DNA of 64,000 nucleotides from Dehalococcoidia bacterium (GTDB lineage: Bacteria > Chloroflexota > Dehalococcoidia > Lucifugimonadales > UBA3495). The stretch lies in assembly GCA_965221025.1 (NCBI GenBank), contig CBDCRJ010000001.1, positions 197,850 through 261,849 of the forward strand, given 5' to 3'. This document shows positions 14,826 to 46,347 of this stretch, piece after piece (within the stretch, counting starts at the first letter, position 1; each line of letters starts with the position of its first letter). The position numbers and the translations under genes were made by a program. The notes below the pieces were generated by a model. It did no database searches. It was not told the DNA's origin and saw only the letters and a list, made by a program, of their open reading frames with translations.

Positions 14826-14902
14826 GGGTGGTTAGCTCAGTTGGTTAGAGCGCCTGCTTTACACGCAGGAGGCCGCAGGTTCGAGTCCTGCACCGCCCAC
14901 CA
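14826..14902 (+). tRNA. tRNA-Val (anticodon TAC)
   Basis: Hand-folded cloverleaf: acceptor gggtggt/accgccc (one GU), D-arm gctc-agttggtta-gagc, anticodon arm cctgc-ttTACac-gcagg, T-arm gcagg-ttcgagt-cctgc, discriminator A, encoded CCA. Confidence 0.9.
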
Positions 14903-14953
14903 GACTTGACGAAATCAAGAACCTTCAGCTTGAGGTTTACGCTGGACCTGTAG
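14895..14953 (+). repeat. DR1: tRNA-Val 3' end plus flank, repeated at 23485 and 30379 (degenerate copy near 37725)
   Basis: gcccaccagacttgaYRaaatcaagaacYttca... About 37/42 nt are identical to the copies at 23485 and 30379. Homology continues with one gap for roughly 60 nt. Confidence 0.65.
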
Positions 14954-15095
14954 TTAGGTGTAGGTGACGTGCTCGCCCGAGGAAGTGCGAGTGAACTCGA
15001 TAAGCCGGCCTTTCAGTTGTTGTTCGCCTTGCCTAGAGTTTCGGCCGACAGGGCCGATGGGCTGACCAATTTGAGGGATAGGGCCAATTCCTGAC

Positions 15096-17180
15096 CTACC
15101 GCAGGGCCTTGTTGATTGTCTTGATGAATTCCTTCCACTGAGTTCGTTCTACCTCGGTGAGGTCTGCTGCTTCATGTTCTCGTGTCCAGCGAAGGAAGGC
15201 CTTGGCGAGCCGGTACTTCGAGAAGGTCTCTTTGCCGATCTCCTTTGTGAAGATGTCAACAACTGGCCGTGCTGGTTGCCGACCGGCAGTCTCTTCGATG
15301 TCCCAACCCAGATCGGTCTTCGCTACATCTATGAGTGTGTCCCTGAGTAGGTCTTCGATCTCCGGGCCTTTAACGACTCCCGTGCAGGCGTCAGCCGTTC
15401 GGAGGATGTTCTTGTTGCCTAGGGTGTGGATTAGGGTTTCGACTCTGGCAGCAGCTTCACCAGCCGCGTCCGAGTCCAGCAAGGCCGCCACCTTGAGGTT
15501 GTTCGCGTGAAGAATAGTGGCGAAGTAGACCACCTTGCCGGCGTTGTTAGCTGGGATTAGCGCAATCTTGTCGTTGAGATCTGCCTCTCCCGCCGCCTTG
15601 AGAAGGGCCGCGGTCGCCTCAATGTACCAATAGTCGGTCAGACCCTCGAGAACCAGATTGCGCTCCTGCATGAAGAGGCTCTGGGCAAGGTCATAGCCGA
15701 GTGCCTCCTGGAGGGGAAGAAGCGCGGTTGAGTCACCGGCAGTGATCGTGGTGTGGACCTTAGTGCCGGTCGTTCGCTCCTTCATCTCGACGACCCGCAC
15801 CAAGTCGAGCTCGTCTGGCCCCACCATGAACGGCGAGTGGGTCGTGTACAGGAGCTGGTTGGTCTCGCCTAGGCGAGAAACGGTGGTACGGAACTCGCGC
15901 TGCTTTAACCCATGGAGACTCAGCCCAGGTTCGTCAAGCAGCAAGACGGCATTCTGATGGCTGTCAGCTGCTTCGGCAAAGAAAACGACAAAGAACGAAA
16001 CAAGCCACTGGAAGCCTTCAGAGCGCTGGTCCAGCTCGACTTCCACACCTAGCTCGTCCTCGACGACGACCTTGAGATACTGCTGGTCGGCTTCGACACG
16101 CAGACGATCAGCCTCGGCCTTTTTCGGGTCGGGCTGCCAAACCCTGTTGATGCTCTTGGTTAGCTGAATGCTCGCGGCGTTGAGTCTGTAGCTGCGTCTG
16201 TCGAGTTGGTCTTGGTAAGCTTTAAGGCCACTCTGGTCGCCCGCCCCAGGCTCGGCGGCTTTGCCTAGGTTGGAGAGCTCGCGCGCTTCAAAGCCAAGGA
16301 GTTTGAGCAGACACTGGTTTCCCCTGTCATATTGGTCGTCGTCTAGGACGTTCTGTTCTAGGCGGTCAGCGAGAAGGCCCAAGTGGAGTCTAGGGCGAAC
16401 TCTGAAGTAATTCGAGAAATACACAAAGACCGGCAGACGTCCACGGAGCAGCTTCAGGGCCTTTTCTGTTTTTTCGGACATCCTAGCCGCATTGGTCAAC
16501 CTATCGAGGCGTTCTTCCTCAAGCTCATTCTCCTCGTCAACTAGAGGAGTGACGCCATTCAGCCACTCCATGAGTGTAGTGGCTCGTTCTCCCGAGAGGC
16601 TGGATTCGTCGCCCCATTCAGCAACCATCGCATCCAGCTCTTGACGGTGGGATGTCTCAGAAGCCTCCTCCGCACCCGCAGTGACCTGTGCATCAAGGTG
16701 TGAAGCCAGCCGTAAGAGGTCCTTACGGATATCACCATATCTTGGGACCACTGGGCCGCCATCGATTCTATGCCAGAACTTATTGTCAAGGCGACGCCCG
16801 AACACATAAGTGCAGCCAGTAAAGCGCTCGTCTATCTGCGTGACCGCCTCTAGTTCATCGTCGTCAAGTCCGAAGTGCGCCTCCACTACAGTCACTTTGT
16901 CGGGTGTGATAGTTCCGCCGCCCGTCTTATCGAGTCTAAGATCACTAAGCTCAGACCGTGGAAAGTCGCGGAGTGGGTCAAAGTTTGGCACGCCGTTTGG
17001 TGGGTTAATTTGCTCAAGCGCTCTGAGCAGCACCGTCTTGCCAGCCTCGTTGGGGCCGACGATGATCGTCTTCATAGATTCGACATCGAACCATCCGCTG
17101 TCTCGGATACCCCGATATTTCTGTACACGGGCTTTCTGTAATTTCATTAGGCCACCATCCAAACTAAGAGGATAATCCAT
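15096..17180 (-). CDS. OLD-family nuclease (ABC-type ATPase + C-terminal Toprim)
   Basis: Walker A GPNEAGKT, Walker B LLLDEPGLSLH, TTHSPF, then Toprim LVLEGLTDYWYIE and ALLDSDAAGE. The start could instead be ATG 17147 (MKLQKARVQKYRGI). Confidence 0.85.
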   Translation of the reverse strand: MDYPLSLDGGLMKLQKARVQKYRGIRDSGWFDVESMKTIIVGPNEAGKTVLLRALEQINPPNGVPNFDPLRDFPRSELSDLRLDKTGGGTITPDKVTVVEAHFGLDDDELEAVTQIDERFTGCTYVFGRRLDNKFWHRIDGGPVVPRYGDIRKDLLRLASHLDAQVTAGAEEASETSHRQELDAMVAEWGDESSLSGERATTLMEWLNGVTPLVDEENELEEERLDRLTNAARMSEKTEKALKLLRGRLPVFVYFSNYFRVRPRLHLGLLADRLEQNVLDDDQYDRGNQCLLKLLGFEARELSNLGKAAEPGAGDQSGLKAYQDQLDRRSYRLNAASIQLTKSINRVWQPDPKKAEADRLRVEADQQYLKVVVEDELGVEVELDQRSEGFQWLVSFFVVFFAEAADSHQNAVLLLDEPGLSLHGLKQREFRTTVSRLGETNQLLYTTHSPFMVGPDELDLVRVVEMKERTTGTKVHTTITAGDSTALLPLQEALGYDLAQSLFMQERNLVLEGLTDYWYIEATAALLKAAGEADLNDKIALIPANNAGKVVYFATILHANNLKVAALLDSDAAGEAAARVETLIHTLGNKNILRTADACTGVVKGPEIEDLLRDTLIDVAKTDLGWDIEETAGRQPARPVVDIFTKEIGKETFSKYRLAKAFLRWTREHEAADLTEVERTQWKEFIKTINKALR

Positions 17181-17418
17181 CTCTTGGGGAGCAGGTCATA
17201 ACCGTTGGGGCTTCCGGTCAGGTACCGTTAGCTTGCCTCTCATCGCTCCCTAAATCTCCTCCTGGTAAATCCAATCGGCCAGGGGAGGAACCGCAAGTCA
17301 AGCAGGTCGAAGGATGCACAATGCAACTCCTTGCAGAGAATCAGATGAAGACCCCGTCGCAAGCACCCGAGAGTTCCCAGCTTCAGACCGGATCATTGCT
17401 TAGCATATTGCGCAGTCG

Positions 17419-18183
17419 TCAGTCGTAGCCTACGTCGGACGGAAGGAGTGGGCGCACCTGCTTTTCCCGAACCTCGCTTAGGGCGTAGTCCTTTAATAGA
17501 CCTACATCTGGGACATTGACAAACCCTGAAAATCTCTCACTGTTCTCATCGCCGATACGAATCAGGTCAGAGGAGGTGAGGGTTGAAATGCCTCCGGCCA
17601 CGGCTGAGCGCGACATGGCCGTTAGGCGGACGATGTCTCGCTGCCGAAGGGTGATCTCGCGTTCGCAACCGTGATCCTCTCCTCTCAGGGCGAGGCGGGA
17701 AATCAGGGCGGCCGCAACCCTCTGCGCCGGACTCCCGCTGATAGCGAGGGTGATCCAGTAGTAGCGCGCCAAACGCCTCAGCAAGACAAGATACATCTCG
17801 GAACGTATCTGAGGGATCCTTTCAACTGCGAGCCTCATGGTGGCGACTGGGATGGCTACTACGGTCGCCGGCGTGGCGGCCGAATAGGAGGCCACCCAGC
17901 GCTTCGCACCCATCATGAATTCGTGGTCGCCGATGAGGAAGGGGGAGGACAGGTCCGAATATGGATACTGCCAGGTCACGATCATTCCGTGTTGAACGAA
18001 GTACAGGTACGTGAAGGGCTCCCCCGACCGAATGAGCGCGATGTCAGCCGAGGGCTCGATGAACAGCATCTCCAATGGCTCCTGTCCACGAGAGAGAGCG
18101 TCCTCAAGCTCGACAGCATCGACAGACTGAAAGGCCTGACACCGCGCCAGTGCCTGGGCGAAACCGCCGATTTCAATTGCCAT
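17419..18183 (-). CDS. CRP/FNR-family regulator (cNMP-binding domain + C-terminal HTH)
   Basis: Beta-roll-like region FTYLYFVQHGMIV...FLIGDHEFMMGAKRWVASYSAATPATVVAIP, then HTH ITLRQRDIVRLTAMSRSAVAGGISTLTSSDLI. ATG 18183 chosen (M61 of ORF 17419..18363). Transcribed divergently from cap4. Confidence 0.75.
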   Translation of the reverse strand: MAIEIGGFAQALARCQAFQSVDAVELEDALSRGQEPLEMLFIEPSADIALIRSGEPFTYLYFVQHGMIVTWQYPYSDLSSPFLIGDHEFMMGAKRWVASYSAATPATVVAIPVATMRLAVERIPQIRSEMYLVLLRRLARYYWITLAISGSPAQRVAAALISRLALRGEDHGCEREITLRQRDIVRLTAMSRSAVAGGISTLTSSDLIRIGDENSERFSGFVNVPDVGLLKDYALSEVREKQVRPLLPSDVGYD

Positions 18184-18256
18184 TGCGGCTAACTCCCATT
18201 CATGCTGCCGCCATCTTAGCATACCAACGGGCATTTGTGAAGATGTTGACACGGCA

Positions 18257-18285
18257 TTGACTTTGTCTGCCAGAAGACATATGCT
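18257..18285 (+). promoter_or_regulatory. Candidate sigma70-type promoter for cap4 with an embedded inverted repeat
   Basis: TTGACT (18257-18262), 17-nt spacer, TATGCT (18280-18285). The spacer contains TGTCT-N6-AGACA (18264-18279). ATG of cap4 is at 18329. Confidence 0.4.
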
Positions 18286-18328
18286 AGTCCCGTAGCGACA
18301 TGCACAAGATGGACGAAGGCGATAGACA

Positions 18329-19855
18329 ATGAGAGCGGTTTCTGCTCGGCAACAGGGGGACACATACCAGGGACGCGTGTTCTGGCTAGAGGCTTGCCGC
18401 CTGTTCCAACGTCACACGAAAGTTGCAGGCGTTGGGTGCGAGATCGATGATGTCCCCCATTTCGACGATGTCGCTGTCGTCTACTCTGAGCCAATCAGGG
18501 ACGCCCACGGCGAGTTGGTCTCCGCCGACTACTATCAAATCAAATGGCACGTTGACCATGGCGGGGCGCTCACTTGCGACGCCCTGACGGACCCGTCCTT
18601 TATCGGCTCCAAGAGCACCTCACTCCTCCAGCGGCTGCATGAGGCCGTCAAGACGACATCGGCGAGAAACGAGACTGCAAGGTTCAACTTCATGACCACC
18701 TGGAGCATCCCCGCCGATGACGTCCTGGCGAAGCTAGTGAGTGGACGCGATGGGGAGTTGAGGCTCGATGTCCTCTTTGGTCAGGACACATCCGCTCGGT
18801 TCTCTCGGGTCATAGAGCGGTGGTCGCACGACCTGGGGGTGGGCCACGAGGAATTGCGAAGCGTGTTGGCCCGCCTGCGAATCTGTGCCAACTCTTACAG
18901 CCTCGATCATCTGACCAGGACACTGAGTGAGCATTTGGCGAGGGCCGGCTTCCGCGCAGTTGACCATGGCAGCCGAGCGAATCCATACGACAGCCTGATC
19001 GAACGTCTGCTCTCCGAGGGGCGGAGCAAGTTCACGGCACTGGAGATCCAGACCATCTGCAGCGAGGAAGGACTATGGACGGGCCCGGAATCGGACTGCG
19101 AGGCTCCCCTCGTCGGCATCAGGAGTTTCCTCCGGTTTGCTGAGCACATGGAAGACGAAGTTGACCACCTGTTGGACCTAGCAGGTCTGTTCGATGGTAG
19201 GGAGATTGGTGCACCAGAATACTGGAACACCAAAGTCGGCCCCAAGATACATGAGTTCATGACGAGGTCGGTCGCCCCCCTCGGTCAGTGCAATCTGTAC
19301 CTCTCCGCGCACAGCTCCATCGCTTTTGCGGCCGGGTACGAACTGGACCCTAAGTCCGGCACACGCGTCTCACTCGTCCAGAACACCGCCGCCGGTAGAT
19401 CGATTTGGGACTCCTCCTCCGTGACGGCGAGTCCCGACTCCAATCCCTGGAGGGTCTCAGGTATCAGTACGCACCCGAACGGTCGTGAAGTCGGCATCGT
19501 CCTGTCGGTAACCCATGACGCAAGCTCTGAGGTTCTGGCGCATGTTCAGGAGCACATCCCACAACTGGGCCACCTGCTTACCTTCACCATTTCGCCCGAT
19601 ATAGGCCCGATGGCAGTAAGGGACGGGGACCACGCGTGGATACTGGCACAGGAGTTGGTGAAGACCGTTCGGGAGCGGCATCCGAGGCACACCCCTACGG
19701 GTCCTTTGCACATATTCAGCGCTGCCCCAAATGGACTGGTTTTCCTCGTGGGGAGGCTTGCCCGTAGCCTCGGGCCCATACAGTTGTACGAGCACGACTT
19801 TGAGTCCAACTGGCCCTCTAGGTATCGGAAATCGCTCTCACTACCTATCGGATAG
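18329..19855 (+). CDS. cap4: CBASS effector Cap4-like: N-terminal PD-(D/E)xK endonuclease (DUF4297-like) fused to SAVED
   Basis: N-terminus GDTYQGRVFWLEA...CEIDDVPHFDDVAVVY...DYYQIKWH (D...QxK nuclease signature). The C-terminus LHIFSAAPNGLVFLVGRLARSLGPIQLYEH is typical of the SAVED end. Confidence 0.8.
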   Translation: MRAVSARQQGDTYQGRVFWLEACRLFQRHTKVAGVGCEIDDVPHFDDVAVVYSEPIRDAHGELVSADYYQIKWHVDHGGALTCDALTDPSFIGSKSTSLLQRLHEAVKTTSARNETARFNFMTTWSIPADDVLAKLVSGRDGELRLDVLFGQDTSARFSRVIERWSHDLGVGHEELRSVLARLRICANSYSLDHLTRTLSEHLARAGFRAVDHGSRANPYDSLIERLLSEGRSKFTALEIQTICSEEGLWTGPESDCEAPLVGIRSFLRFAEHMEDEVDHLLDLAGLFDGREIGAPEYWNTKVGPKIHEFMTRSVAPLGQCNLYLSAHSSIAFAAGYELDPKSGTRVSLVQNTAAGRSIWDSSSVTASPDSNPWRVSGISTHPNGREVGIVLSVTHDASSEVLAHVQEHIPQLGHLLTFTISPDIGPMAVRDGDHAWILAQELVKTVRERHPRHTPTGPLHIFSAAPNGLVFLVGRLARSLGPIQLYEHDFESNWPSRYRKSLSLPIG

Positions 19856-19884
19856 GGAGCAAAACCCAACAAAGGAGCAGAAGG

Positions 19885-21006
19885 ATGGAATTGAACAGCT
19901 ACTTCACGGACTTTCTCAGCAAGATCAGGCCGACGGAGGCCCAGACCAAGGAATTGCAGGAGGCTCACACGCGCCTGCGAGAAAGACTGCTGGCCGACGA
20001 ATACCTCGGCCCCATGATCGTCAGCGTGTTCTTGCAGGGGAGCTATCGGAGGTCGACGTCCATTCGCCCTCAGGGGGACGACAAGCTGGACGTGGACTTG
20101 GTCGCCGTTACACGATTCCGCCGCCAAGACTACCCGGTGGCAGACGACGTGATGAAAGAGTTCGCTTCCTTCCTGAACAAGCACTACAAGGGCAAGTGGA
20201 AGAGGAAGGGACGGTCCATCGGCATAGAGATGTCCAAGGTGAAGCTCGATCTGGTGATCGCGGCGGCACCCTCGGAAGAAGAACCTTGGTCCTCCGATTT
20301 CATCCAGGGGCACTTCACGCCTGACGACTGGCCAATGGACTCTGATGCCTTGCCCAAGTATCTTGCTGATTTCTTCAAAGACCACCGCACGGGAGAACCA
20401 CAGTGGAAGCAGGAGCCTCTCTACATCCCTGACAGGGACACCCATGAATGGCAGCGCACCCATCCCCTGGAACAGTACGGGTGGACCACCAACAAGAACA
20501 GGCGCACGAACGGTCATTTCGTCAACATTGTGAGGTTGGTCAAGTGGTGGTGGAGAACGGCGCATCCCGAACTCGAATATCCGAAGAGCTATCCTCTGGA
20601 GCATTTGGTCGGCGACTGCTGCCCAGACAATGTTGAGAACCTGGCGCAGGGATTCACCCTTGTACTTGAGAAGATGGTCTCCACGTACTCGGCATACGCG
20701 GCTGCAGGGATGGTTCCGTTCGTTCCAGACCGAGGAGTTCCCGAGCACAACGTACTCAAGCGACTGTCTTCAAGTGACTTCTCAAAATTCGTTGACCGTG
20801 TCCAGAACGCCTCTGGTGTGGCGCGGAAGGCCTTGGAGTCGGGCGATTCGTCGGAGAGCGCGAACCTGTGGCAATCGCTTTTGGGTAAGAGGTTCCCGTC
20901 CCCTTCAGGTGGATCATCGGCAGCGGCGGCCGGAGCTGCAGCGGGGACTGCCGGGTTCACACCTCGCCGAGAGCCGACGCGCGTTGGAGGGGGAAGATTC
21001 GCCTAG
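19885..21006 (+). CDS. cdn: CD-NTase (SMODS-family cGAS/DncV-like nucleotidyltransferase)
   Basis: FLQGSYRRSTSIRP (GS motif), DVDLVAV (DxD) and KLDLVIAA (third Asp). Ala/Gly-rich tail ending GGGRFA. AAGGAG lies upstream of the ATG. Confidence 0.85.
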   Translation: MELNSYFTDFLSKIRPTEAQTKELQEAHTRLRERLLADEYLGPMIVSVFLQGSYRRSTSIRPQGDDKLDVDLVAVTRFRRQDYPVADDVMKEFASFLNKHYKGKWKRKGRSIGIEMSKVKLDLVIAAAPSEEEPWSSDFIQGHFTPDDWPMDSDALPKYLADFFKDHRTGEPQWKQEPLYIPDRDTHEWQRTHPLEQYGWTTNKNRRTNGHFVNIVRLVKWWWRTAHPELEYPKSYPLEHLVGDCCPDNVENLAQGFTLVLEKMVSTYSAYAAAGMVPFVPDRGVPEHNVLKRLSSSDFSKFVDRVQNASGVARKALESGDSSESANLWQSLLGKRFPSPSGGSSAAAAGAAAGTAGFTPRREPTRVGGGRFA

Positions 21007-21044
21007 CTTCTTGCCACGACCGATCGCTTACTGAGTCCCTCCGC

Positions 21045-22823
21045 GTGGGTCGCAGAGCCTTGGAGTCGGTGCCGGGCATAAAGATGCTGGGGGACTTCGC
21101 CTGGCACGAAGACCGAGCGCTCTGGGCTCTTCACTGCAGGATCGCCGCGGACGTTGAGTCGGGAGGTCTTATACCTCGTACAACCGACTGGTACATCCAT
21201 GTCCGCGATACATACCCGTTCGGTCAAGTCATCTTCTACCCGGCGAAGGTCGGGGGTGTAACGCACACGTTCTATCACCAGAATCACAATGGAGCCGGGC
21301 CCAACGAATTGCCGTGGAGATGTGGACGTCTGTGTGTCGACACAAGCCTTCGCACTCTGGGTCGGCGGTCCTACGATGTCGAGCCGTTCGATCCGGAATC
21401 CAGGCTCGCCTGGCATGTCCGCCGAGTACAGGAGTGGCTTGGCCTAGCGTCACGAGGCGAGCTGGTCCATCTTGGCAACCCCTTCGAGTTGCCACATATT
21501 CCCTTTTCCTCCGGTCCCAAGGTTATCTTCGCCGAGGGACCCGAGAATCTTTCCTTCTGGTTGGGGCGGCACCCGCGTAAGGGCACTGCGAGTGTCCGAA
21601 TCCTAGAGGAAGACCCACCAATTCTCGTGGTGGACGACCTGAACGTGGGCAAGTCTGGAGTAGATATCCAGGCCCCCTGGACCAAACCTCTCGGTAAGGA
21701 AAGCGATCTTGGCGTGGCGTGGATCTGGCTCGACCAGCTACCAGTAGTCGCTCCATGGGCGATACCAACAACATGGGGACAGCTCCGAATGTGCTGCAGG
21801 GCACAGGGGGTTGATCTTGACTCCTTGTTGAGGCCGTTATGCGGCAACCTCAGGGACGGGAAGAGGCATGTTCTGCTTGTTGGATTTCCCGTCCCGGCCA
21901 GAGTTCAGGAACCTGATGCCCAGGTTCACTGGCTCGCGCTCTGGCTCCCGCCCCTGACCTCACGGCCGTTACCTGGATTTCGCCCCACGGAGTCAGGCTA
22001 CTGGAGCCGAGACCGATCGCTGGCATTCGGAGACAGTGTGCCTCTGGAATGGCTTGAGACCGAGAATTGGCACCAGGATGAGATATCAGGCCGGGGGAGG
22101 GTGAATCCATCGGTACGGTCAAAGTCTATTGTGATCATCGGTGGTGGCGCGGTTGGCTCGGTGCTGGCCGAAATCTTAGTCCGCTCAGGCGTCCAGGATG
22201 TGACGATCATGGACCACGACCGCCTGAAAGTTGGCAACCTCGTCAGGCACACTCTTGGAGTTAGCCACCTGGATAAGCCGAAAGCTCGGAATTTGGCAGA
22301 CCGCCTCGATGATGCAGCGGTCCATTCCGTCGTAACTCCCATAGATGCTGCATTTCCCCCGACTGACCGCAAGGACATCAATCGTGTTCTGAACGCCGAT
22401 GTCGTCATCGACTGTACGGCAGACGACTCCGTTGCGGAGCATATGCGTAGGTTCGCTTGGGACGGACCCGTTACCTTCGTGTCGGTATCAGTTGGCTTGA
22501 AGGCGAGGCGAGCGTTCACCTACGTGGCGCACAGCAACACCTTCCCGGCCGACGACTTCGCAAATAGGCTGGATCCCTGGCTCCGATCTGAAATGGATGG
22601 ATACGATGAGGAGTTGCCGCGGGATGGCACAGGGTGTTGGCATGCGCTGATGCCGGCGCGGATCGATGACATCTGGATAATGACCGGGGCGGCTGTAAAG
22701 ACCATAGGATCCGCAATCGCCGAGCCTCCGAGTGAACCCACTCTGGTCGTATTTGAGCAGCAGTACGAGAATGGTGAATTCGTTGGGCTACGTAGAGTGT
22801 CCGCACCCGACGCCATCTCCTAA
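21045..22823 (+). CDS. cap2: Cap2 (E2-like + E1/ThiF-like fusion)
   Basis: E2-like HQNHNGAGPNELPWRCGRLCVDT (HxN...C), then E1 Rossmann IVIIGGGAVGSVLAEILVRSGVQDVTIMDHDRLKVGNLVRH. GTG 21045 or ATG 21084 as start. Confidence 0.85.
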   Translation: MGRRALESVPGIKMLGDFAWHEDRALWALHCRIAADVESGGLIPRTTDWYIHVRDTYPFGQVIFYPAKVGGVTHTFYHQNHNGAGPNELPWRCGRLCVDTSLRTLGRRSYDVEPFDPESRLAWHVRRVQEWLGLASRGELVHLGNPFELPHIPFSSGPKVIFAEGPENLSFWLGRHPRKGTASVRILEEDPPILVVDDLNVGKSGVDIQAPWTKPLGKESDLGVAWIWLDQLPVVAPWAIPTTWGQLRMCCRAQGVDLDSLLRPLCGNLRDGKRHVLLVGFPVPARVQEPDAQVHWLALWLPPLTSRPLPGFRPTESGYWSRDRSLAFGDSVPLEWLETENWHQDEISGRGRVNPSVRSKSIVIIGGGAVGSVLAEILVRSGVQDVTIMDHDRLKVGNLVRHTLGVSHLDKPKARNLADRLDDAAVHSVVTPIDAAFPPTDRKDINRVLNADVVIDCTADDSVAEHMRRFAWDGPVTFVSVSVGLKARRAFTYVAHSNTFPADDFANRLDPWLRSEMDGYDEELPRDGTGCWHALMPARIDDIWIMTGAAVKTIGSAIAEPPSEPTLVVFEQQYENGEFVGLRRVSAPDAIS

Positions 22824-22830
22824 CCTCACC

Positions 22831-23283
22831 ATGTGCTCCCCCGATGGGCGTTTTCGCGTCCAAGTTGGGTATCACCAGTTGGAGGCTCTATTGGATGTGT
22901 GCCGCGAGTCCGGCGACTTGGAGACCGGCGGGGTCCTCGTTGGTCGGTACAACGAGGCGCACGACACCGCGATAGTGACACGGGTATGGGGTCCGCCAGG
23001 AGACTCCGTCAGGAGGCGGACCAGCTTTTGGAGAGGAACCCAAGGCCTGCAACAGCAACTTGACGCCTTGTGGAAGTCCAGGGAATACTACCTTGGTGAA
23101 TGGCATTATCATCCCCGAGGAGCCGGTCAACCCAGCAATGGGGACAAACAGCAGATGGTCCGGATTGCCGAATCGCTTGATTACAACACTCCGGAGCCCG
23201 TGCTCATAGTGGTCGGTGGATCGGACTGGGAAGTGCTGGGCCACGTGTTCCCGCGGCACGGCACAGCCATTGGGCTTGTCTAA
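22831..23283 (+). CDS. cap3: Cap3 (JAB/JAMM isopeptidase)
   Basis: ETGGVLVG plus HYHPRGAGQPSNGD, an exact E...HxHx7Sx2D JAMM motif. ATG 22831 lies 8 nt after the cap2 stop. Confidence 0.85.
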   Translation: MCSPDGRFRVQVGYHQLEALLDVCRESGDLETGGVLVGRYNEAHDTAIVTRVWGPPGDSVRRRTSFWRGTQGLQQQLDALWKSREYYLGEWHYHPRGAGQPSNGDKQQMVRIAESLDYNTPEPVLIVVGGSDWEVLGHVFPRHGTAIGLV

Positions 23284-23621
23284 ACTTAAGCGAAGAATCC
23301 TCGGCAGGCCCTCACCCACCTCGCGTCGGCTACTGCGTGCTCAGCAACGAGCAACCATGAGGCCTTAGTGGGTTCAGAGGCTGCCGAACGACACCTGGAG
23401 GATGGTACCGTGTCTAGCGTCCTCAACCGACCTACAAAGCCCCAAGCCACAATTCGAAGACGGTTCTGTCTATCGTCAAAATAGGCCCACCAGACTTGAT
23501 AAAATCAAGAACTTTCACCCTGCGGGTCAGGTTGGCGCTGTAACCGACGCCTGCCTTGCCCCGGCGTCGGCCCGCCGGGAAACGGCAAATCAGGCCGACA
23601 GGTAACGTACCAAGCAGCGAC

Positions 23622-23658
23622 GAGGCCCCTGCTGTAACGGCGGGGGCCTCTGGTTTGT
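23622..23658 (+). terminator. Intrinsic-terminator-like hairpin (module A)
   Basis: gaggcccctgctg / cggcgggggcctc stem (about 13 bp with wobbles), followed by tggtttgt. Conserved in all three full modules. Confidence 0.5.
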
Positions 23659-23839
23659 CTCAGACCGCCGCTGCCATTTCGACGCTCGCGGCTACGTCCC
23701 GCGGGCTCCCCGCCATTCCCCGGCCGTCAGTCGATGGGAGTCCCGTTGAGCGCCCACGCCGCTTCCTGAACATGCTGGGCTAAGACCTGACGCGACATGG
23801 GCATAGGCGCCTGGTAGTCATTTGCCTATGCAATCACTG

Positions 23840-23874
23840 TAGACAAATGTCTAGTGCAAAATAGACATTTGCAC
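23840..23874. promoter_or_regulatory. Paired palindromes TAGACAAATGTCTA and GTGCAAA-ATAGACA-TTTGCAC (operator candidates)
   Basis: TAGACA-AA-TGTCTA at 23840-23853. A 7-bp inverted repeat around ATAGACA lies at 23854-23874. The same arrangement occurs in modules C and E, and a variant at 35571. Confidence 0.55.
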
Positions 23875-24157
23875 CTTACGTCCGGCTTGGAAGCTCACTA
23901 CGATTTACGTTGGCGAGGGCTGCTTTTCGAGCGGCCAGCCTTGTCATGGGCGCCGAAAACCCAGGCAATCATCCGACGTTGGGCGAGAGGAGCGATGACC
24001 AGTACCGATAGACGAGGAATCCCAATCCTCGACGGAGCAGAGACATCCGTCGCAGCAGCCCGCGTTGCCGTGGTCTCCGCGACCCGGTCCGCCCCCCATT
24101 CGATGAAAGGTCAACCGAAGAGGAGTTAGCAAGGTTCCACTTAGGGAAGTTAAGGAC

Positions 24158-27100
24158 GTGAAAGCAATGTCGAAGTCAATCATTGGTCTGGTGCTGAGCA
24201 TCGCGGTTCTCGCCATCCTGCTAATCGGGTGTTCCGATGAGCCAGAGCCCATTCCTTCAAACGGGGCCGATTCCAGCACCACCGCCCCATCGGAGCAGGG
24301 GGTCAATCCTGAGCCAACACATGCTCCCACATCGGCTGTGACAAACACCGACGCATCAGAAGCTGCAATTCCCACACCTGCCGCTCTCCCGACCGCCACT
24401 GCAACGCCCGCAGCCACGGCGACTCCGTTACCCACTGCCATGCCAAGGCCGCAGCCGACTCCCAAGCCCACGACGACACCGGCACCAACATCCGCCGCAT
24501 CAGAAGCTGCAATTCCCACACCTGCCGCTCTCCCGACCGCCACTGCAACGCCCGCAGCCACGGCGACTCCGTTACCCACTGCCATGCCAAGGCCGCAGCC
24601 GACTCCCAAGCCCACGACGACACCGGCACCAACATCCGCACCGACACCTACTCCTACACCAACGCCGACACTAACGCCAACGCCGGAACCCACTCCTGCG
24701 CCGACGCTCACACCAACGCCGACACTAACGCCAACGCCGGAACCCACTCCTGCGCCGACGCCCCTCCCAAGGGCCACGACGATTACGCTGACACCCGGAA
24801 TGGCGATGCTGGAGGCCCCGGACGAGACGGCTCACCTGGCGGTGGTGGTCCGCGACCAGAACGGCCGGGTCATGACCGGAGTACCGGTGACGTGGGCCAG
24901 CAGCGACGAGCGGACTGCTCAGGTGGATGCAGAGGGCCGGGTCATGGCCGTTGCCGGGGGGTCAGCGACGATCACCGCAAGGGCAGGCGAGGCGTCGGGG
25001 ACCTCCCAGGTCATGGTCGTTGACATGGATTGGGCCGCCGGTTTCGTAGCCCGCCAGCATGTGGTTGACGCTGTTACGGGCTTCTCCGGACGTGTTGACC
25101 CGGACTGCACGGCGGTGGACTGTGAACGTGCCCGGTTCCCGGGCGATGGTTCAGGCAACTTCGGGACCTTCAAGGCAGTCACCGGCATCGATCTGGCAGT
25201 GGACAGCACAGGCAGGAGTGGCCTGTCCGGGATGATCCGAAGGCGGGATGCGTTCGACTCCGGAAGGTATGCCAACGGCAAGGTGGTCCGAACCTACGCG
25301 GACATAGAGGCCGCGCACGCCGACGGCAAATTGGCCGTCATGTTCTATGTGCAGCGTCGGCCCGAGTCCTCCGACTGGCAACTGGACGGAGACGTCGCGA
25401 ACCTGCGGCGCTGGTACGACGAAGGCTTGAGAATTCTGCAGGTGTCATACGGCGATGGCCCCGAAAGGCCGGACGCGACCTCTCTCGACGAACGGCTTGG
25501 TTACGGAACTTACGGGCCCCATGAGGGGGAGGAAAAAGGAGTTACCGCTCTCGGCCGTGCCGCCATCGCCGAGATGAACGCCATGGGCATGATCGTCGAC
25601 TGCTCGCATTGCAGCAAGCAGACCACGCTGGATGCGGCAGCCCTGTCCACCAAGCCCGTTATTGCGACGCACGCCAACGCTGAGGCACTTACCCCGCGAA
25701 TACGGAACAAGGACGACGACGAGTTGCGTGCCATCGCCGGCACGGGAGGCGTAATCGGGGTTACGTGCATCCGGTGGATGCTCGACACGGACGGCGACGG
25801 GAAAGCGGGTATGTCCGACATGATCGCCCACATTGAGTACATAGCGGAACTCGTGGGCATAGACCACGTGGGAATCTCCTCCGACTCGGACGTGAATGGA
25901 TGGCCGCAGGAATCGGTGCACTATGCGGACGCCGACATTGCCGCTCCGGACCGCTGGGTGCGGCTCACCGCCCAACTCCGCGCTAGGGGTTGGAGCGAGG
26001 AGGACCTGGCAAAGCTGCTGGGCGGCAATTTCCTGAGGGTCTTCGCCGAGGTGCTCCCCACAAGAGGCGCGAAGGGCAGGGAACCGGAATCTATGCCCCC
26101 TAACTTCAAGGTAGCCTTCATTGGGGACCAGGGGCTAGGCCGTGGTTCTGGGGCGGTCTTGGAAATGATACGAGAGGAAGGGGCGGATATGGTGCTGCAC
26201 TCGGGCGATTTCGACTATGACGACGACCCCGACCGCTGGGACCAACAAATCAATGAAACCCTCGGTGATGACTTTCCTTACTTCGCTTCCATCGGCAATC
26301 ACGATGTTCCTGCCTGGGAAGGTTACCAGAGGAAGTTACAGGAGAGGTTGGCTCGAATCAGCGGGGCCCGTTGCACAGGCGATCTGGGAGTAAATTCCTT
26401 CTGCACATTTGAGGGGTTGTTCTTTGTGCTTTCCGGCGTAGGCACCATTGACTCGGGCCGCGTCTCCTTCATAAGTGAAGCCCTTGGGTCCGAGGAGGCA
26501 AAGGAGTCCCTCTGGCGAATCTGCTCATGGCACAAGAACCAGAGGCTGATGCAAGTCGGGGGAAAGAAAGATTCGGTCGGATGGGAGCCTTACGAAGAGT
26601 GCCGGAAGGGCGGGGCGATCATAGCTACGGGCCACGAGCATTCTTATTCACGCACACACCTAATGGATAGTTTTCGGACCCAGAGCATCGCTTCCAAGTC
26701 GGCCGTCTTGAACGTTGACAATGGAAAGAGCTTTGCCTTTGTCTCCGGTCTTGCGGGACGCAGCATCAGAGGTCAGGACGATCAGCTCGCCGCCAAACCC
26801 TGGTGGGCGGCGGTGCATACTTCGGCGCAGGGAGCAAATCATGGCGCGTTGTTTTGCGTCCTCAACCACGAAGGAGTTGAAAATCGAGGATATTGCTACT
26901 TCAAAGACTTGAATGAAGTCAATCCCGACGCGTTTGGGGTCATTGTGGGGCCGACTGCTGAAATTCCTGAGGCATCATCATTCGTGCCGACGGCGAGTCC
27001 GAAGCGGGAGGTGGAGTACGACTATATCATAGAGTTGCCGGACGACTGGATCCAGAAAGGCGAGGACAGGTACAGCAGCCCCTCGCCCCGAGTCTCGATA

Positions 27101-27466
27101 ATTATTACATCTCACAGGTTCGGAGGTGACATTGACCAGTACATCCAACAGGTGCAAGACAATCTGAAAGAGGACTGGGAGGACTGGTGGTTTACGACTT
27201 CACTATTCGAGACCACTTCCGTAGATAGGGAAATTACGGACGAACAGACGACAATCCGTATGCGGTACCGGGTGCAGGAGGCCGAATACTGTGTCCTTGA
27301 CGTTGTCGATGTCGTGCTGGTATCCCAAATCGTTCCGGGAGACCCGCAGGTATTTAGAATACGGGCGTGGATGTGCGAGCGAAACGTTGCCAGCCGTGGC
27401 CAGATGAGGGATGACGTACTGAACAGTTTTGAGGTGATAACTAGGCCCATAAACGGCGGAAGTTAA
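24158..27466 (+). CDS. Multidomain lipoprotein A: PT-rich linker, Big_2, M19 (renal-type) dipeptidase, metallophosphoesterase, C-terminal unknown domain
   Basis: Lipobox LLIGC. Big_2-like [46 protein letters not shown]. Dipeptidase [32 protein letters not shown]. Phosphoesterase [32 protein letters not shown] 24167 is the likelier start (AAGGA upstream). Confidence 0.85.
24353..24640 (+). repeat. Near-perfect 144-bp tandem duplication inside the PT linker
   Basis: Unit gcatcagaagctgcaattccc...aacatccgc at 24353 and 24497 (48 aa each). Only the last base differs by my reading. Confidence 0.9.
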
Positions 27467-27567
27467 TTTTTCCGTGCGGGCGGGTAGCCGCTGACATTGG
27501 GTGGACGCAAATTGGGCCACCCGCCGCCTTACGTAAGGCTGACTACCAGCAACGGCGGGTGAGACGG

Positions 27568-27639
27568 ATGTATCCGGTGGAACTGTACACACGGGCTCGT
27601 CGGGCAGTGATGGTGGAGGGGATGAGCCATCGGAAAGCG
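27568..27639 (+). pseudogene. Possible transposase N-terminal HTH remnant
   Basis: [24 protein letters not shown] resembles the Y..ElR.RAV..V.eG.S.RkaA start of IS630/IS3-type transposase HTH domains. No continuation of a transposase follows. Confidence 0.3.
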
Positions 27640-27765
27640 CACCGCAGCAGAGACATCCGTGGCAGCGGCCCGTGTTGCCGTGAGCTCCGCGCCCCGGTCC
27701 GCCTCCCATTCGACAAAGGTCAAGTGATGAGAGCTAGCAGGATTCAACTCAGGGAAGTTGAGGAC

Positions 27766-30069
27766 GTGAGGGCGATTTCGAAGTCAATCATTGGTCTGCT
27801 GGTGAGCGCCGCAGTGATCGCCATCCTGCTAACCGGGTGTTCCGATGAGCCAAGCCCCGCGCCTTCGGCCGGGATTCTTTCTGGCTCCACGGCCACACCG
27901 ACGCCCACTGCCGCGCCAACTCCTACACGCACGCTGACACCCACACCCGCATCTACGCCCGTTCCTACGGTAACACTCACCGCAACCCCAACACCGACGC
28001 CCACTGCCGTGCCAACTCCTACACGCACGCCGACACCCACACCCACACCCACAGTGGACCCCACCCCTACGCCAACGGTGACCATAACCCCCATCGGCCG
28101 CGGGATTTCCGTCACCTCAGAGGCCACACCGACGCCCACTGCCGCGCCAACTCCTACACGCACGCTGACACCCACAGCCGCACCGTTGACGCCTACGCCC
28201 ACTGCCGTGCCAACCCCAACGCCGATTCCCACTCCAACACCTGCACCGACGACCGCACCCGCGCTGACACCCACAGCCGCACCGTTGACGCCTACGCCCA
28301 CTGCCGTGCCAACCCCAACGCCGATTCCCACTCCAACACCCGCGCCGACGACGGTCGCGGTGGTGCCGGCCACGGCCGAACTGACCGCCCTGGGCGCGAC
28401 CGTGCAACTCAATGCCGAGGTGCGTGACCAAGACAGCAGGGCGATGGCGGGCGCCACGGTTTCCTGGTCGAGCAGCGCCGTCACCGTGGCAGCAGTGGAT
28501 GCGGCCGGTGTCGTGACAGTGGCGGGCAACGGCACGGCGACGATCACCGCTTCGGCCGGGTCGGCATCAGGGACCGCGGTGGTGACGGTGACGCAGGAGG
28601 TGGCCTCAGTGGAGGTGTCGCCGTCCGTGACCGAGCTGGCCGCGTGGGGCGAGACCGTTCAGCTGACGGCGGAGGCGCTCGACGCGAACGGGCATGCGGT
28701 GACGGGAACCGAATTCTCATGGCAGTCCTCTGACCCCCTGGTGGCGGAGGTGGATGCTCTTGGTGTGGTGTCCGGGATTAGCGAAGGGGTGGCGACGATC
28801 ACGGCGAGCGCGGGCGCTGCGTTGGGGTCTGCAGCAGTAACGGTGCCACCCACGTTCACTCTATCTGGCACAGTACGTGACAGCCGGGAAAACGGCCCAA
28901 ATTTGGTAGGCGCCGTCGTGCGCCTGGAAAACGGCAAACGGGAATCCGTGGTCATCGGCCCCGACGGGCGGTACAGCTTCCCGAGCGTCCGGGGGACGGT
29001 CACGGTTAGGGCCATCGCCGGGCCCACCCATGTAACCGAGACAGTTGAGATTACGGTGGACGAAGACCGCACGCTAGACTTCGATCTCGAACACACGGGC
29101 GAGCCGCCGTCTCGGGGAACAGCGTTAGACTATCCGCGAATCATCGAGCCTTCCGATCCCAGCACGTTGCAAAGCATTACGTATGCGGGTCGCGGCGAGC
29201 GTCTGGTCTATGATCGGCGGCCCGACATGTGGATTACTATCAATGCCTACCTGTTCGATGTACGGTACGAAGACGCGGAGCTTGAGTTTCAGGTCAACCC
29301 GGAATTCGGGAGCAGGGAGGCCGCGCGGACGGAAGTCGACACGTATGCGGCCGCGTTGGGCCAGTTGCCCGCAGTTCTCCTGTCGACAGTCCAAGAAGTG
29401 GAGATCAATGCTGGCTATGAGCTGTTCGGGGGCAACGGATCCGAAAGGAGTGTCAGCATCCACACAGATTACGGTAAGGAGTACATCCGTGACGGTGATT
29501 TGGAGGAGGTTCTCGTGCATGAAGCCACGCATGCCTCACTGGACCCGGCTCACAAGGACTCCCCCGGCTGGCGTGCGGCGCAGGCGGCCGACGGCGTATT
29601 CATTTCGACGTATGCCCGCGACTTTCCGGTCCGGGAGGATGTCGCAGAGAGCTTCCTGGTATGGTTCGCCGTGCGGTATCAGCCAGAGCGGCTGACCCGC
29701 TCAGAGCGAGCTGTGATTCTGAGGACAATGCCGAATCGCCTGATCTACTTTGACGAGCAGGGATTCGACATGTCGCCCTACACACCATCGGAGATCCAGG
29801 AGCCCTCCGGTGAAATCGTCACCATTCAGGGCAAGGTGATCGGGCCGAACAGCCAGCCGTTGGGAGGGATATTGCTGTGGGCATGGTCTGGAAGCGTTGA
29901 TAGCAGCGCACATACCACGACCGGGGAGGACGGCTCCTTTGCCATAGTAGTCCCCGATGGTTCCTACACCTTGGACGTATACGCCCCCGGCGAGGGATGC
30001 AATTTCGTAGGATGGCACGGCCAGGGGGATTCACCGCAGAACGGGGAGACGCAACCCGCATTGAGGTAG
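27766..30069 (+). CDS. Multidomain lipoprotein B: PT linkers, Big_2 domains, CarboxypepD_reg-like domains, HExxH metalloprotease-like domain
   Basis: GTG 27766 sits at the same position as the GTG of the paralogues. Lipobox LLTGC. At least two clear Big_2 repeats ([11 protein letters not shown]..., [11 protein letters not shown]...), plus [26 protein letters not shown] and [11 protein letters not shown]. The ORF-track start at 27559 would bury the signal peptide. Confidence 0.8.
28167..28364 (+). repeat. 99-bp tandem duplication in the PT linker of lipoprotein B
   Basis: gacacccacagccgcaccgttgacgcc... occurs at 28167 and 28266 (33 aa units, [27 protein letters not shown]). Confidence 0.85.
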
Positions 30070-30515
30070 ACGGTGGAAGTGTCTTAGACATCGTAATACG
30101 GCTTCCGGACCACCCGCAGGCCTTGCCTCGCATTGAGCATTGCGCCTGACCGAGTTTACTCGGCACCCGAGGCCACGTCTGCTGCGGAAGGTGGGACATG
30201 CAGTCTGTCTTGCTGTCCATGTTCTTCCGTCAACCACGAGTACAGGGCCTCGGTAGGCTCATAGACTCCCCACCCACAGTTCGAGGCGGGTTCTGTCAGA
30301 TCATTACTAGAGATAGTATCGTCGTTCGCAGAATGCCCAGCCACATCTCGAATATGGTGCCATCTACCGTCCACTCAGGCCCACCAGACTTGATAAAATC
30401 AAGAACTTTCACCCTGCGGGTCAGGTTGGTGCTGTAACCGACGCCTGCCTTGCCCCGGCGTCGGCCCGCCGGGAAACGGCAAATCAGGCCGACAGGTAAC
30501 GTACCAGGCAGCGAC

Positions 30516-30552
30516 GAGGCCCCTGCTGTAACCGCGGGGGCCTCTGGTTTGT
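30516..30552 (+). terminator. Intrinsic-terminator-like hairpin (module C)
   Basis: gaggcccc...ggggcctc followed by tggtttgt. Lies about 450 nt downstream of the lipoprotein B stop. Confidence 0.5.
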
Positions 30553-30733
30553 CTCAGACCGCCGCAGCCATTCCTACACTCACACCCACGCCCCACCCGC
30601 TCCCCGCCACTCCCCGACCGTCAGCCGATGGGAGTCCCGTCGAGCGTCCCAGTCGCTTCCTGAACACGCTGGGCTGAGACCTGCCGCGACATAGGCATAG
30701 GCGCTTTGTAGCCATTTACCCATGCAATTCCTG

Positions 30734-30778
30734 TAGACAAATGTCTAGATAAATGTCTAGTGCAATGTAGACGTTTGC
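30734..30778. promoter_or_regulatory. TAGACAAATGTCTA palindrome region (module C)
   Basis: tagacaaatgtcta at 30734-30747, then gataaatgtctag and tgcaatgtagacgtttgc. Confidence 0.5.
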
Positions 30779-31054
30779 TCCTTATATCCGGCCTGGAGGT
30801 TCACTACGATTTATATTGGCGAGGGTTGCTTTTCGGGCGGCAAGCCTTGTCATGGGCGCCGAGAAGTCCAGGCAATCATACGACGTTGGGTGAGAGGAGC
30901 GATGACTCGCACCGGTAGACGAGGAATCTCAATCCGCGACGGAATAGAGACAGCCGTGGCAGCGGCCACGAGGCCGCCCTCCACACGACGGGCACATCCG
31001 GTCTGTGACAGGTCACGGGATGGCGGGCTGACAAGTTTCGTTTAAGGAAGGGAC

Positions 31055-34051: not shown

Positions 34052-34064
34052 CGGGAGGGCATAG

Positions 34065-35170: not shown

Positions 35171-35311
35171 CGGAGATGACCAATCCAAGTATCGTATTTG
35201 TCGTTTGCTCCGTACGATTTACGCTGGCGAGGGCTGCTTTTCGAGCGGCAAGCCTTGTCATGGGCGTCGATAATCCCAGGCAAACATACGACGTTGGGCG
35301 AGAGGTGCGAA

Positions 35312-35587
35312 ATGTCAAAGTCCATCGCAAGCAGTGTGCTGCTCGCGGGCGCGATATTCCTCGCCATACTCATGCCCGGATGTTCCGATGAGCCGACCCC
35401 TTCACCGGTGACCAAGATTCTTCCTAGCTCCACTGCCACACCTACACCCACTGCCGTACCAACACCAACGCCGACTGCCACTCTAACACCCGCGCCGACG
35501 ACGGTCGCGGTGGCGCCGGCCGTGGCCTCCATTATGAGCCGCAGACAGCCCCTCATGACAGGGCAAGGCATAGACAAATGCCTATAG
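35312..35587 (+). pseudogene. Truncated lipoprotein stub (signal peptide + PT linker only)
   Basis: MSKSIASSVLLAGAIFLAILMPGCSDEPTPSP...TTVAVAPAVAS is collinear with the 5' end of lipoprotein B up to the first Big_2 domain, then diverges and stops. A partial upstream module precedes it. Confidence 0.5.
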
Positions 35588-37684: not shown

Positions 37685-37854
37685 GTTTCTCCCGCACCAA
37701 CTCCCCATGACTCGATAGCGCCTCCACCGCCCGCCCAACGTCTCACGGCAAGGCAGACCCGCAGCGTTCGCGCCGCAATCCTCCTGCCTTGCCCCGCCGT
37801 CGGCCCGCCGGGAACCGACGGAGCAGGCCGACAGATAACGTACCTGGCATCTAC

Positions 37855-37891
37855 GAGGCCCCTGCTGTAACGGCGGGGGCCTCCGGCTTGT
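37855..37891 (+). terminator. Intrinsic-terminator-like hairpin (module E)
   Basis: gaggcccc...ggggcctc followed by cggcttgtt. Lies 170 nt downstream of the response regulator stop. Confidence 0.45.
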
Positions 37892-38070
37892 TCCAGACCG
37901 CCGCAGCGATTCCGACAGTCATTCCCACGTCCCGCGCGCTCCCGGCCATTTCCCGGCCTTCAGCCAATGGGAGTCCCGTTGAGCGTCCACGCCGCTTCCT
38001 GAACACGCTGGGCTGAGACCTGCCGCGACATGGGCATAGGCCCCTGAGGGCATTTGCCTACGAATCTCTA

Positions 38071-43890: not shown

Positions 43891-43899
43891 AGGAAGCGC

Positions 43900-46337: not shown

Positions 46338-46347
46338 GGAGGCAGCT

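Follow-up and report, generated by a model that had tools for sequence, protein, structure and literature searches.

A mosaic 5' head region shared by predicted lipoprotein genes of uncultured Dehalococcoidia

Introduction

In Borrelia hermsii (vmp/vlp) and B. burgdorferi (erp/mlp) a conserved 5' untranslated region (UTR), ribosome binding site and first codons provide the homology for swapping gene bodies; promoterless archival copies on linear plasmids serve unidirectional gene conversion into one telomeric expression site. In the Mycoplasma agalactiae vpma, M. bovis vsp and M. pulmonis vsa loci a conserved 5'UTR and signal peptide are joined to divergent, repeat-rich bodies, and 5' recombination re-assorts the genes (PMC2268961). 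In these loci a tyrosine recombinase encoded next to them (Xer1, Mbr or HvsR) moves one promoter by inverting DNA at sites no more than about 72 nt away from the start codon. Here we describe a conserved 5' region, referred to as the head, in front of predicted lipoprotein genes in 64,000 nt of a Dehalococcoidia genome (contig CBDCRJ010000001.1, positions 197,850 to 261,849; this whole stretch is called the window).

We think it fairly probable that the head is the shared 5' control and export unit of a surface-lipoprotein multigene family in an uncultured Dehalococcoidia clade, made mosaic by recombination. The feature is not categorically new, its design principle being known from Borrelia and the mycoplasmas. 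A first-pass annotation of this DNA had judged the arrangement unusual; in principle it is not (for the conserved 5' regions of the mycoplasma lipoprotein families see PMC2268961).

With the mycoplasma loci the family shares the conserved 5'UTR and signal peptide. Unlike them, each full copy of the head has its own terminator, operators and putative promoter; the copies are direct, not opposed, in the window and in each multi-copy locus; and the shared region has about ten times the length and a mosaic make-up, the exchanges observed being those between strains. No tyrosine recombinase was found with Pfam among the main long open reading frames (ORFs) of the window, whose sole recombinase is a large serine recombinase (46653-48404). 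In contrast to Borrelia, the genes lie on the chromosome, most of the full copies look capable of independent expression, and the genes behind the head (the payloads) belong to different families and are not antigenic variants of one fold.

Copies, parts and forms of the head

Three full copies of the head (A, B and C) and two partial ones (pA and pB), all proposed by the first-pass annotation, proved real: the three full copies are collinear and 84-90% identical, and their mean column identity is 86% in an alignment of about 800 columns. Head positions are counted from 23485 (position 1). The parts that the annotation had named (a tRNA-derived repeat, palindromes, a terminator-like and a GC hairpin, a leader and a small upstream ORF, uORF) were located in copy A. 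Its left edge resembles an attachment (att) site, and its Shine-Dalgarno (SD) sites are given with the parts:

23485-24350, + strand: copy A as a whole
23485-23542, + strand: att-like left edge, with a cttgat-aaa-atcaag hairpin at 23496-23510
23552-23587, + strand: imperfect GC hairpin, its pairs mostly kept, with one-sided changes only
23622-23660, + strand: intrinsic-terminator-like hairpin of 13 pairs (stem 23622-23650) with a T-rich tail, near-invariant in 15 copies
23725-23806: best-conserved block, 93-94% identical to the majority base, almost free of indels and non-coding in six frames
23815-23877: operator array, with palindromes P0 (TAGTCATTTGCCTA, 23815-23828) and P1 (TAGACAAATGTCTA, 23840-23853) and a TAGACA half-site (23864-23869)
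23893-23995, + strand: leader unit (head positions 409-511), ending in the SD site GAGAGGAGCG and an ATG; duplicated around payload blocks
23995-24129, + strand: uORF of 44 codons, present in all three full copies
24130-24166, + strand: 3' part of the core 5'UTR with an AAGGA SD site; the core 5'UTR is common to all forms of the head, including the short one
24167-24350, + strand: signal peptide and Ser/Thr/Pro-rich linker, with the Cys codon at 24230-24232 and under coding constraint

The remaining copies are arranged as follows:

30379-31247, + strand: copy B, with att-like edge 30379-30436, terminator 30516-30554, conserved block 30619-30700, P0 30709-30722, duplicated P1 30734-30759, leader 30799-30902, a divergent uORF segment and the signal peptide from 31064
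37701 (approximately) to 38595, + strand: copy C, with a type II left end and degenerate att-like stretch 37701-37777, terminator 37855-37893, conserved block 37958-38039, P0 38047-38060, duplicated P1 38071-38096, leader 38136-38239, uORF 38239-38406 and the signal peptide from 38412
27643-27857, + strand: partial copy pA, head positions 549-766 (about 215 nt: 3' uORF segment, core 5'UTR and signal peptide)
35207-35587, + strand: partial copy pB, a leader (35207-35310, head positions 409-511; 86% identical to the leader of copy B and 90% to that of copy A) fused at its ATG to the pB-type lipoprotein 35312-35587

The head had been taken to end at the signal-peptide codons. The shared block reaches about 190 nt past the start codon, through the signal peptide (MSKSIIGL...LTGC) and the Ser/Thr/Pro-rich linker. 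Nor does it behave as a single portable unit, since it occurs in four nested forms:

head positions 1-776: full form, preceding the main lipoprotein type
head positions 1-511: upstream-half form, fused at the leader ATG to a second lipoprotein type (MSKSIASSVLLAGAI...PGC)
head positions about 466-776: medium form
head positions about 622-776: short form

Breakpoints recur at positions of about 66, 409, 466-472, 511, 549 and 622. At least six segments, each recombining separately, make up this mosaic: the att-like scar, the terminator hairpin, the 80-nt conserved block, the palindrome array, the leader of about 105 nt, and the relic uORF together with the core 5'UTR, signal peptide and linker. 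In the short form an RCC1-repeat gene ends with its stop codon, a 60-nt intergenic core follows, and the next gene starts; this form is simply the spacer between tandem RCC1 lipoprotein genes. The operator block is missing from the short and medium forms, which lie downstream of other family genes and, like operon members, have an SD site and start codon of their own; they are not clearly silent archives.

The left end is of two types. Type I has the tRNA-like edge, while type II begins directly after a LuxR-type regulator gene. The tRNA-derived left end that the annotation had ascribed to the full copies accordingly holds for copies A and B; copy C, which starts after the response-regulator gene, has a degenerate version only.

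The leader ATG is used in different ways. At three loci of other genomes (L006, L009 and L014; labels are explained below) it directly starts the second lipoprotein type, and at L020 it starts an ORF whose first 12 or so codons match the uORF and which continues into an RR-containing signal peptide and an fn3 fragment. In 13 copies of the head the uORF is open for 44-55 codons, and its stop lies 20-40 nt ahead of the main start codon. It is probably a relic and looks like what is left of an earlier gene start to which the core UTR and signal peptide were grafted; an effect of its translation on the main ORF, for example by coupling, is speculation.

Distribution and payloads

At least 14 further full or half copies were found in 11 metagenome-assembled genomes (MAGs) of Dehalococcoidia and in several ENA metagenome contigs. 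With the shared N-terminus as protein query, 12 proteins were retrieved, all from ENA long-read metagenome assemblies. A DNA scan for the lipobox codons, with one genome per species, gave 15 loci in 11 genomes, all recorded as "MAG: Dehalococcoidia bacterium", and BLAST placed the head in nearly all of these loci, often several times. Loci are labelled with L and a number; L017 and L014 are adjacent 8-kb chunks of chromosome OZ244824.1, and L020 is a contig of ENA ERZ25067264. The head was not found in plasmid or phage records (BLAST), in viral contigs or in metagenomes of the Joint Genome Institute (JGI), and no literature specific to these MAGs or this gene family was found. It belongs to a single clade and is an old feature there, shared by many species-level genomes.

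The annotation had proposed that one head stands before unrelated genes and that related genomes should be searched for it in front of other payloads. This search bore the proposal out: RCC1, ankyrin, Big_2 plus peptidase and other architectures occur. RCC1 repeats make up the majority across copies, the others being Ank, Big_2+Peptidase_M19+Metallophos, Big_2+CarboxypepD_reg, an RCC1+Peripla_BP_6 fusion and unknown families. Many family members are short or frameshifted, which suggests rapid turnover. The payloads of the window are:

24167-27466, + strand: payload A, a Big_2 + Peptidase_M19 + Metallophos lipoprotein
27559-30069 as listed, with a likely GTG start at about 27766, + strand: payload behind pA, a Big_2 + CarboxypepD_reg lipoprotein
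31064-35048, + strand: payload block B, an RCC1-repeat lipoprotein (31064-34051) followed by an fn3 lipoprotein (34065-35048)
38412-40529, + strand: payload C, an RCC1-repeat lipoprotein

The fn3 lipoprotein 34065-35048 has a third, unrelated signal peptide (MSKPVIGLLGLYAGLLAILVSGC) and travels with the RCC1 gene inside a block bracketed by leaders. An ORF at 40526-41137, overlapping the end of payload C at 40529, encodes five more RCC1 repeats; the two are probably one frameshift-split gene, either a pseudogene or the result of a sequencing error. The Pro/Thr/Ala-rich linkers at 24270-24647, 38515-38982 and 27895-28377 consist of tandem DNA repeats of 78 nt (also 63-135 nt), neighbouring units being up to 100% identical, and are likely to be hot spots of length variation as well as a challenge to assembly.

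At L020 (3429-11825) a remnant of the head (positions 66-455, with the SD site deleted) is followed by a frameshifted signal-peptide and fn3 gene fragment and then by a complete type I-C operon of the clustered regularly interspaced short palindromic repeats (CRISPR)-Cas kind (Cas3, Cas5d, Csd1, Cas7, Cas4, Cas1, Cas2), with a PIN toxin gene upstream. A role of the head as portable promoter of this cas operon was rejected because of the intervening frameshifted fragment and the deleted SD site; the cas genes most likely represent a later insertion. L020, and also L001, L002 and L019, show that heads often lie within variable regions rich in insertion sequences (IS) and defence genes.

A predicted operator array and a neighbouring two-component system

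The palindromes P0 and P1, of the TAGAC-N4-GTCTA type, are 14-mers at a constant spacing of 25 nt. A search for the palindromes gave 7 hits against 0.13 expected by chance, and the pattern TAG[AGT]C-N4-G[ACT]CTA has 5 matches in the window against 0.31 in shuffles. Over 297 kb this pattern occurs 36 times, and all 36 matches lie in copies of the head or about 230 nt upstream of a kinase gene. The features concerned are:

35571-35584: palindrome TAGACAAATGCCTA, outside any head and 229 nt upstream of the kinase gene; its position is kept in L016 (4854) and L013 (5816)
35800-37017, + strand: HisKA_3 histidine kinase (Pfam)
37019-37684, + strand: LuxR/GerE-type response regulator (Pfam)

The site upstream of the kinase gene is present in three of the four genomes examined. 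Full-length kinase and regulator orthologues (91-99% identical in amino acid sequence) lie directly upstream of a type II head in the window, L005, L010, L013 and L016; an exact-protein look-up of the window regulator (37019-37684) gave no record. From the exclusive distribution of the palindrome together with the conserved synteny we infer that the two-component system may control its own operon and the scattered lipoprotein genes. These two observations are also what would speak for the shared regulatory switch that the annotation had suggested.

An inverted-repeat operator at putative target promoters and at the regulator's own operon is what is expected of a regulon of the NarL/LuxR family. 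LiaR recognizes the consensus T(X)4C(X)4G(X)4A at multiple adjacent sites, one of them upstream of the regulator's own operon (PMC4482077). The sites described here resemble such NarL/LiaR-type operators in being inverted repeats with a GAC-N4-GTC core and C(X)4G spacing, in lying next to one another and in occurring at the regulator operon. They differ in sequence and in having the outer positions shifted inward by one base relative to the LiaR consensus, and no LiaF-like partner was seen here.

Two overlapping P1 sites, at 30734-30759, at 38071-38096 and in L010, result from a tandem duplication of 12 nt (ACAAATGTCTAG/ATAAATGTCTAG) that is absent from copy A. The duplication changes the number and spacing of operators and could alter regulation. 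A conserved CCTTATATCC box, if it is a -10 element, would put P1 near -42, on a reading of the alignment.

Conservation and coding potential

Conservation is highest in the 80-nt block (0.93-0.94) and around the terminator (0.92-0.94), lower in the operators and leader (0.82-0.92), and lowest in the uORF segment, UTR and signal peptide (0.70-0.86). The hairpin at 23622-23650 is the sole terminator-like site found on the + strand, and since it lies upstream of all other parts it is read as an insulator against read-through.

Coding constraint was assessed in an alignment of 16 copies by comparing the synonymous share of variant types with that expected from the consensus:

signal peptide (control): observed 0.48, expected 0.27, p=0.002
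80-nt block 23725-23806, six frames: observed 0.21-0.34, expected 0.23-0.28, not significant in any frame
25-codon ORF on the minus strand within the block, 23727-23804: observed 0.26, expected 0.24, not significant
uORF: observed 0.33, expected 0.29, not significant

With a positive control and no synonymous excess in the 80-nt block or the uORF, the bulk of the head looks conserved as nucleic acid, as the annotation had held. Its statement that indels break the reading frames also applies to a 75-codon ORF on the + strand (23556-23783).

Several candidates were dismissed. The minus-strand ORF 23727-23804 is open in most copies but shows no synonymous excess, and the test detected no constraint that would make the uORF a conserved peptide. 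The 75-codon ORF has the same length in the three window copies; non-triplet indels break it in 8 of 17 copies, it has a TTG start without an SD site, and its only database relatives are four ORFs, all called inside other copies of the head. A sigma-54-like GG-N10-GC, noticed by eye in the 80-nt block, was discarded because the neighbouring regulator has no AAA+ domain and the spacing is common in GC-rich DNA.

Exchange between strains

Across gene A, OZ244824.1 (L017 and L014) is 99.3-99.6% identical to the window. The match breaks off precisely at 23484|23485, upstream of which OZ244824.1 has another defence island. Ahead of copy B, identity between the two strains is 100% as far as GCCCACC and falls to about 81% beyond it, so that OZ244824.1 carries a different allele of the head at this locus. 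There the leader runs straight into a pB-type gene, and the RCC1 and fn3 payload block is absent. In the window, the leaders 30799-30902 and 35207-35310 enclose 4.4 kb with the uORF segment, the RCC1 gene and the fn3 gene. L011 has the same leader-bracketed layout with a different payload, while L006, L009 and L014 are unbracketed. Such a leader-bracketed block would be the expected product of one crossover with a circle bearing a leader, or of unequal crossing-over.

Which copy elsewhere is most similar to a given window copy differs between segments: copy A matches L011 over positions 1-400 (identity 0.94-1.00) and is closest to L010 over 512-776 (0.93-0.96). As a rule, a window copy resembles copies of other genomes more than it resembles its neighbours, which points to maintained paralogous loci exchanging segments and not to fresh duplicates. 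These switches, and the strain differences placed exactly at the att-like edge and the leader, agree with the role as recombination substrate that the annotation had put forward.

We regard it as unlikely that the copies are neutral leftovers of tandem segmental duplication, in which a gene was copied with its upstream region and no common regulation or recombination role exists. The copies of the window do have the same orientation and lie roughly in tandem, about 7 kb apart; the short form is an intergenic region between tandem RCC1 genes, and many members are truncated or frameshifted. Against this stand the closeness to copies of other genomes, which indicates old, maintained loci, the better conservation of the non-coding 80-nt block than of the coding signal peptide, the palindrome upstream of the kinase operon, outside the heads, and the two-component synteny kept in five genomes.

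The left edge and a defence island at tRNA-Val

The att-like edge has a counterpart at a tRNA gene some distance upstream:

14826-14902, + strand: tRNA-Val gene, anticodon TAC (ARAGORN; Rfam tRNA, 74.8 bits)
14895-14952, + strand: attL-like repeat, the last 8 nt of tRNA-Val and about 50 nt downstream
14953-23484, between the two repeats: variable defence island (Pfam; strain comparison)

The repeat at 14895-14952 is 79% identical to 23485-23542 and 30379-30436. A 28-nt pattern, GCCCACCAGACTTGAYRAAATCAAGAAC, is found at 14895 (the real 3' end of tRNA-Val), 23485 and 30379, with no match in shuffles. Homology between copies and between strains starts or stops at this edge, and in ten type I copies it begins at the same GCCCACCA. 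The left edge is copied from the 3' end of tRNA-Val and the adjoining downstream sequence, and the annotation had rightly related it to a tRNA.

The att-like repeat of copy A marks the right junction of a strain-variable defence island, and the tRNA-Val copy at 14895 its left junction. As in islands associated with tRNA genes, repeats of a tRNA 3' region flank cargo that differs between near-identical strains, with the breakpoint exactly at the repeat. Unlike in such islands, the repeat overlaps the tRNA by just 8 nt and has itself been copied with the lipoprotein control region to places without a tRNA. Of the three marks of these islands, flanking repeats and variable cargo are present here; the third, an integrase gene, was sought with Pfam among the ORFs of the island and was not found. 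An "empty" junction of tRNA-Val and head, and further copies, were sought in JGI metagenomes without a match.

In the window the island holds an ATPase/nuclease of the OLD family (AAA/TOPRIM; 15096-17180, minus strand), directly downstream of tRNA-Val, and a type II cyclic oligonucleotide-based antiphage signalling system (CBASS), with SAVED effector (18329-19855), SMODS cyclase (19885-21006), ThiF/E1-like protein (21045-22823) and JAB protease (22732-23283). A weak match to a protein binding cyclic nucleoside monophosphates was also obtained among the island ORFs scanned with Pfam. At the same place OZ244824.1 has a Dcm methylase, Vsr, HATPase_c_3 and a DprA-like protein.

These repeats invite the explanation that the tRNA-like edge is a functional att site and that payload blocks and defence islands are moved as site-specific cassettes by a recombinase acting in trans, for which the large serine recombinase 46653-48404, or an integrase encoded elsewhere, would be the candidate. 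The common start of the ten type I copies at GCCCACCA, the two strain-level junctions located exactly there, the three direct repeats (14895, 23485 and 30379), the dyad CTTGAT-AAA-ATCAAG of the edge and the nearby serine recombinase and Replic_Relax genes (41.5-48.4 kb) are in its favour. Pfam found no integrase at 14.9-41 kb, however. Direct repeats of 58 nt are not what large serine recombinases normally leave behind. The CBASS island does not begin with a head, type II copies resemble the others apart from having no good att-like sequence, and many breakpoints lie inside the head, as fits homologous recombination. Integrons differ from this locus as well: there is no integrase here, the blocks have their own putative promoter regions, and no attC-like 3' palindromes were seen in a search that was not exhaustive.

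We consider the cassette explanation quite unlikely. The same doubt applies to its stronger version, a live att site in a recombinase-driven platform that stacks and swaps head and payload blocks and defence islands, all under one two-component sensor. If a live att site did exist, the family would be an integron-like set of ready-to-express surface proteins, with which a host-associated Dehalococcoidia lineage could quickly re-tool a eukaryote-like surface repertoire.

RNA structure

Conservation as nucleic acid without coding constraint, and a stem-loop retained in the leader, albeit with one-sided changes, might reflect a structured RNA core, either a riboswitch-like leader or a minus-strand small RNA from the 80-nt block. 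In the Rfam scan that the annotation had advised, the tRNA of the window alone passed the gathering score, and 23400-24300 gave no match at E<=1. Folds were no more stable than those of shuffled sequences for the leader (z=-0.35) or the minus strand of the 80-nt block (z=+0.22). RNAalifold found the terminator hairpin invariant and the leader stem-loop kept, with one compensatory pair per alignment, and the minus-strand hairpin is not followed by a T-tract. The copies are too similar for covariation to decide, and nothing points to a riboswitch or small RNA; we hold such a core to be very improbable.

A 25-nt stretch with the uORF SD site and start (23982-24006) is 76% complementary to signal-peptide coding sequence 183 nt downstream (24190-24214). 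An equivalent pair was not reported in copy B, and the complementarity is probably due to chance.

Discussion

The head can be read as a series of steps in the expression of one gene. The upstream terminator would insulate the gene from read-through. The promoter region that follows, with its TAGAC-N4-GTCTA operators, would probably be bound by the neighbouring HisKA_3/LuxR-type pair, so that the scattered family members and the regulator's own operon would constitute one regulon. The transcript would begin with a leader of roughly 270 nt, containing a translated, non-conserved relic uORF that ends 20-40 nt before the main start, and would continue with the SD site; the signal peptide and the flexible linker would then export and tether the following domain. 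Recombination between paralogues would have joined the segments in different combinations, the leader of about 105 nt and the att-like left edge being the places where gene blocks may be gained, lost or replaced. Promoter activity, regulator binding, the uORF effect and the mechanism of recombination (homologous or site-specific) are in this scheme predictions made from sequence.

Several observations weigh against the reading of the head as a shared control and export unit spread by recombination. A simple sigma-70 scan of the head found no promoter, and the transcription start is assumed. The single two-component regulon, with the binding of the regulator, is predicted from co-occurrence and synteny only, and L005 has no operator site upstream of its kinase gene. 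The reading assigns no role to the 80-nt block, the best-conserved part. The first two-thirds of the 75-codon ORF show a weak three-base periodicity (p about 0.001-0.007), which may mark a coding relic or hint at present coding. The high similarity between copies could partly reflect recent spread and not selection. At copy B, the different allele (about 81%) means that the window and OZ244824.1 do not differ by a simple insertion or deletion. Finally, the other genomes were read as pieces of 8-20 kb only.

It is extremely unlikely that the head is an IS end, the end of a miniature inverted-repeat transposable element (MITE) or a mycoplasma-type inversion switch moving one promoter between silent genes: terminal inverted repeats at its ends and a transposase beside the window copies were not found, there is no plasmid or phage similarity, the copies are direct and of fixed orientation to the downstream gene, and every full copy has its own operator and putative promoter block.

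If the head is the shared unit that we propose, these lipoproteins would have one export and control region in common, and a candidate sensor-regulator pair and operator can be named for the set. The DNA segments at which payloads and defence islands are exchanged between strains are pinpointed, in organisms that cannot be grown. Surface lipoproteins with eukaryote-like repeats (RCC1, ankyrin, leucine-rich repeats), of which these Dehalococcoidia encode many, are usually read as tools of host interaction. With this family, the design of a conserved 5' region with a variable lipoprotein body reaches a distant phylum and payloads whose folds are unrelated.

Other features of the window

The window has 62% G+C and contains reductive-dehalogenase-like genes alongside eukaryote-like repeat proteins. 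Two reductive-dehalogenase-like/4Fe-4S proteins are encoded at 52897-54177 and 56771-58054, which fits a Dehalococcoidia origin, and a pair of HAMP/HisKA kinase and OmpR-type regulator (48379-50462, minus strand) adjoins them.

Just after the last RCC1 gene, the region 41473-48404 encodes a MarR/winged-helix-turn-helix and Replic_Relax protein (41473-43185), a Gp49-like toxin (45891-46337) and the large serine recombinase (46653-48404). It contains repeats of 64 nt (43917/45686/45742) and 81 nt (45228/45482), and is a probable integrative element.

Further internal repeats were observed in two ORFs. A minus-strand ORF of 518 codons without a Pfam match (50600-52156) contains a 273-nt repeat (50756/51590), and in the ORF 55581-56540 a 69-nt tandem repeat at 56216-56509 encodes an acidic Pro/Glu-rich stretch.

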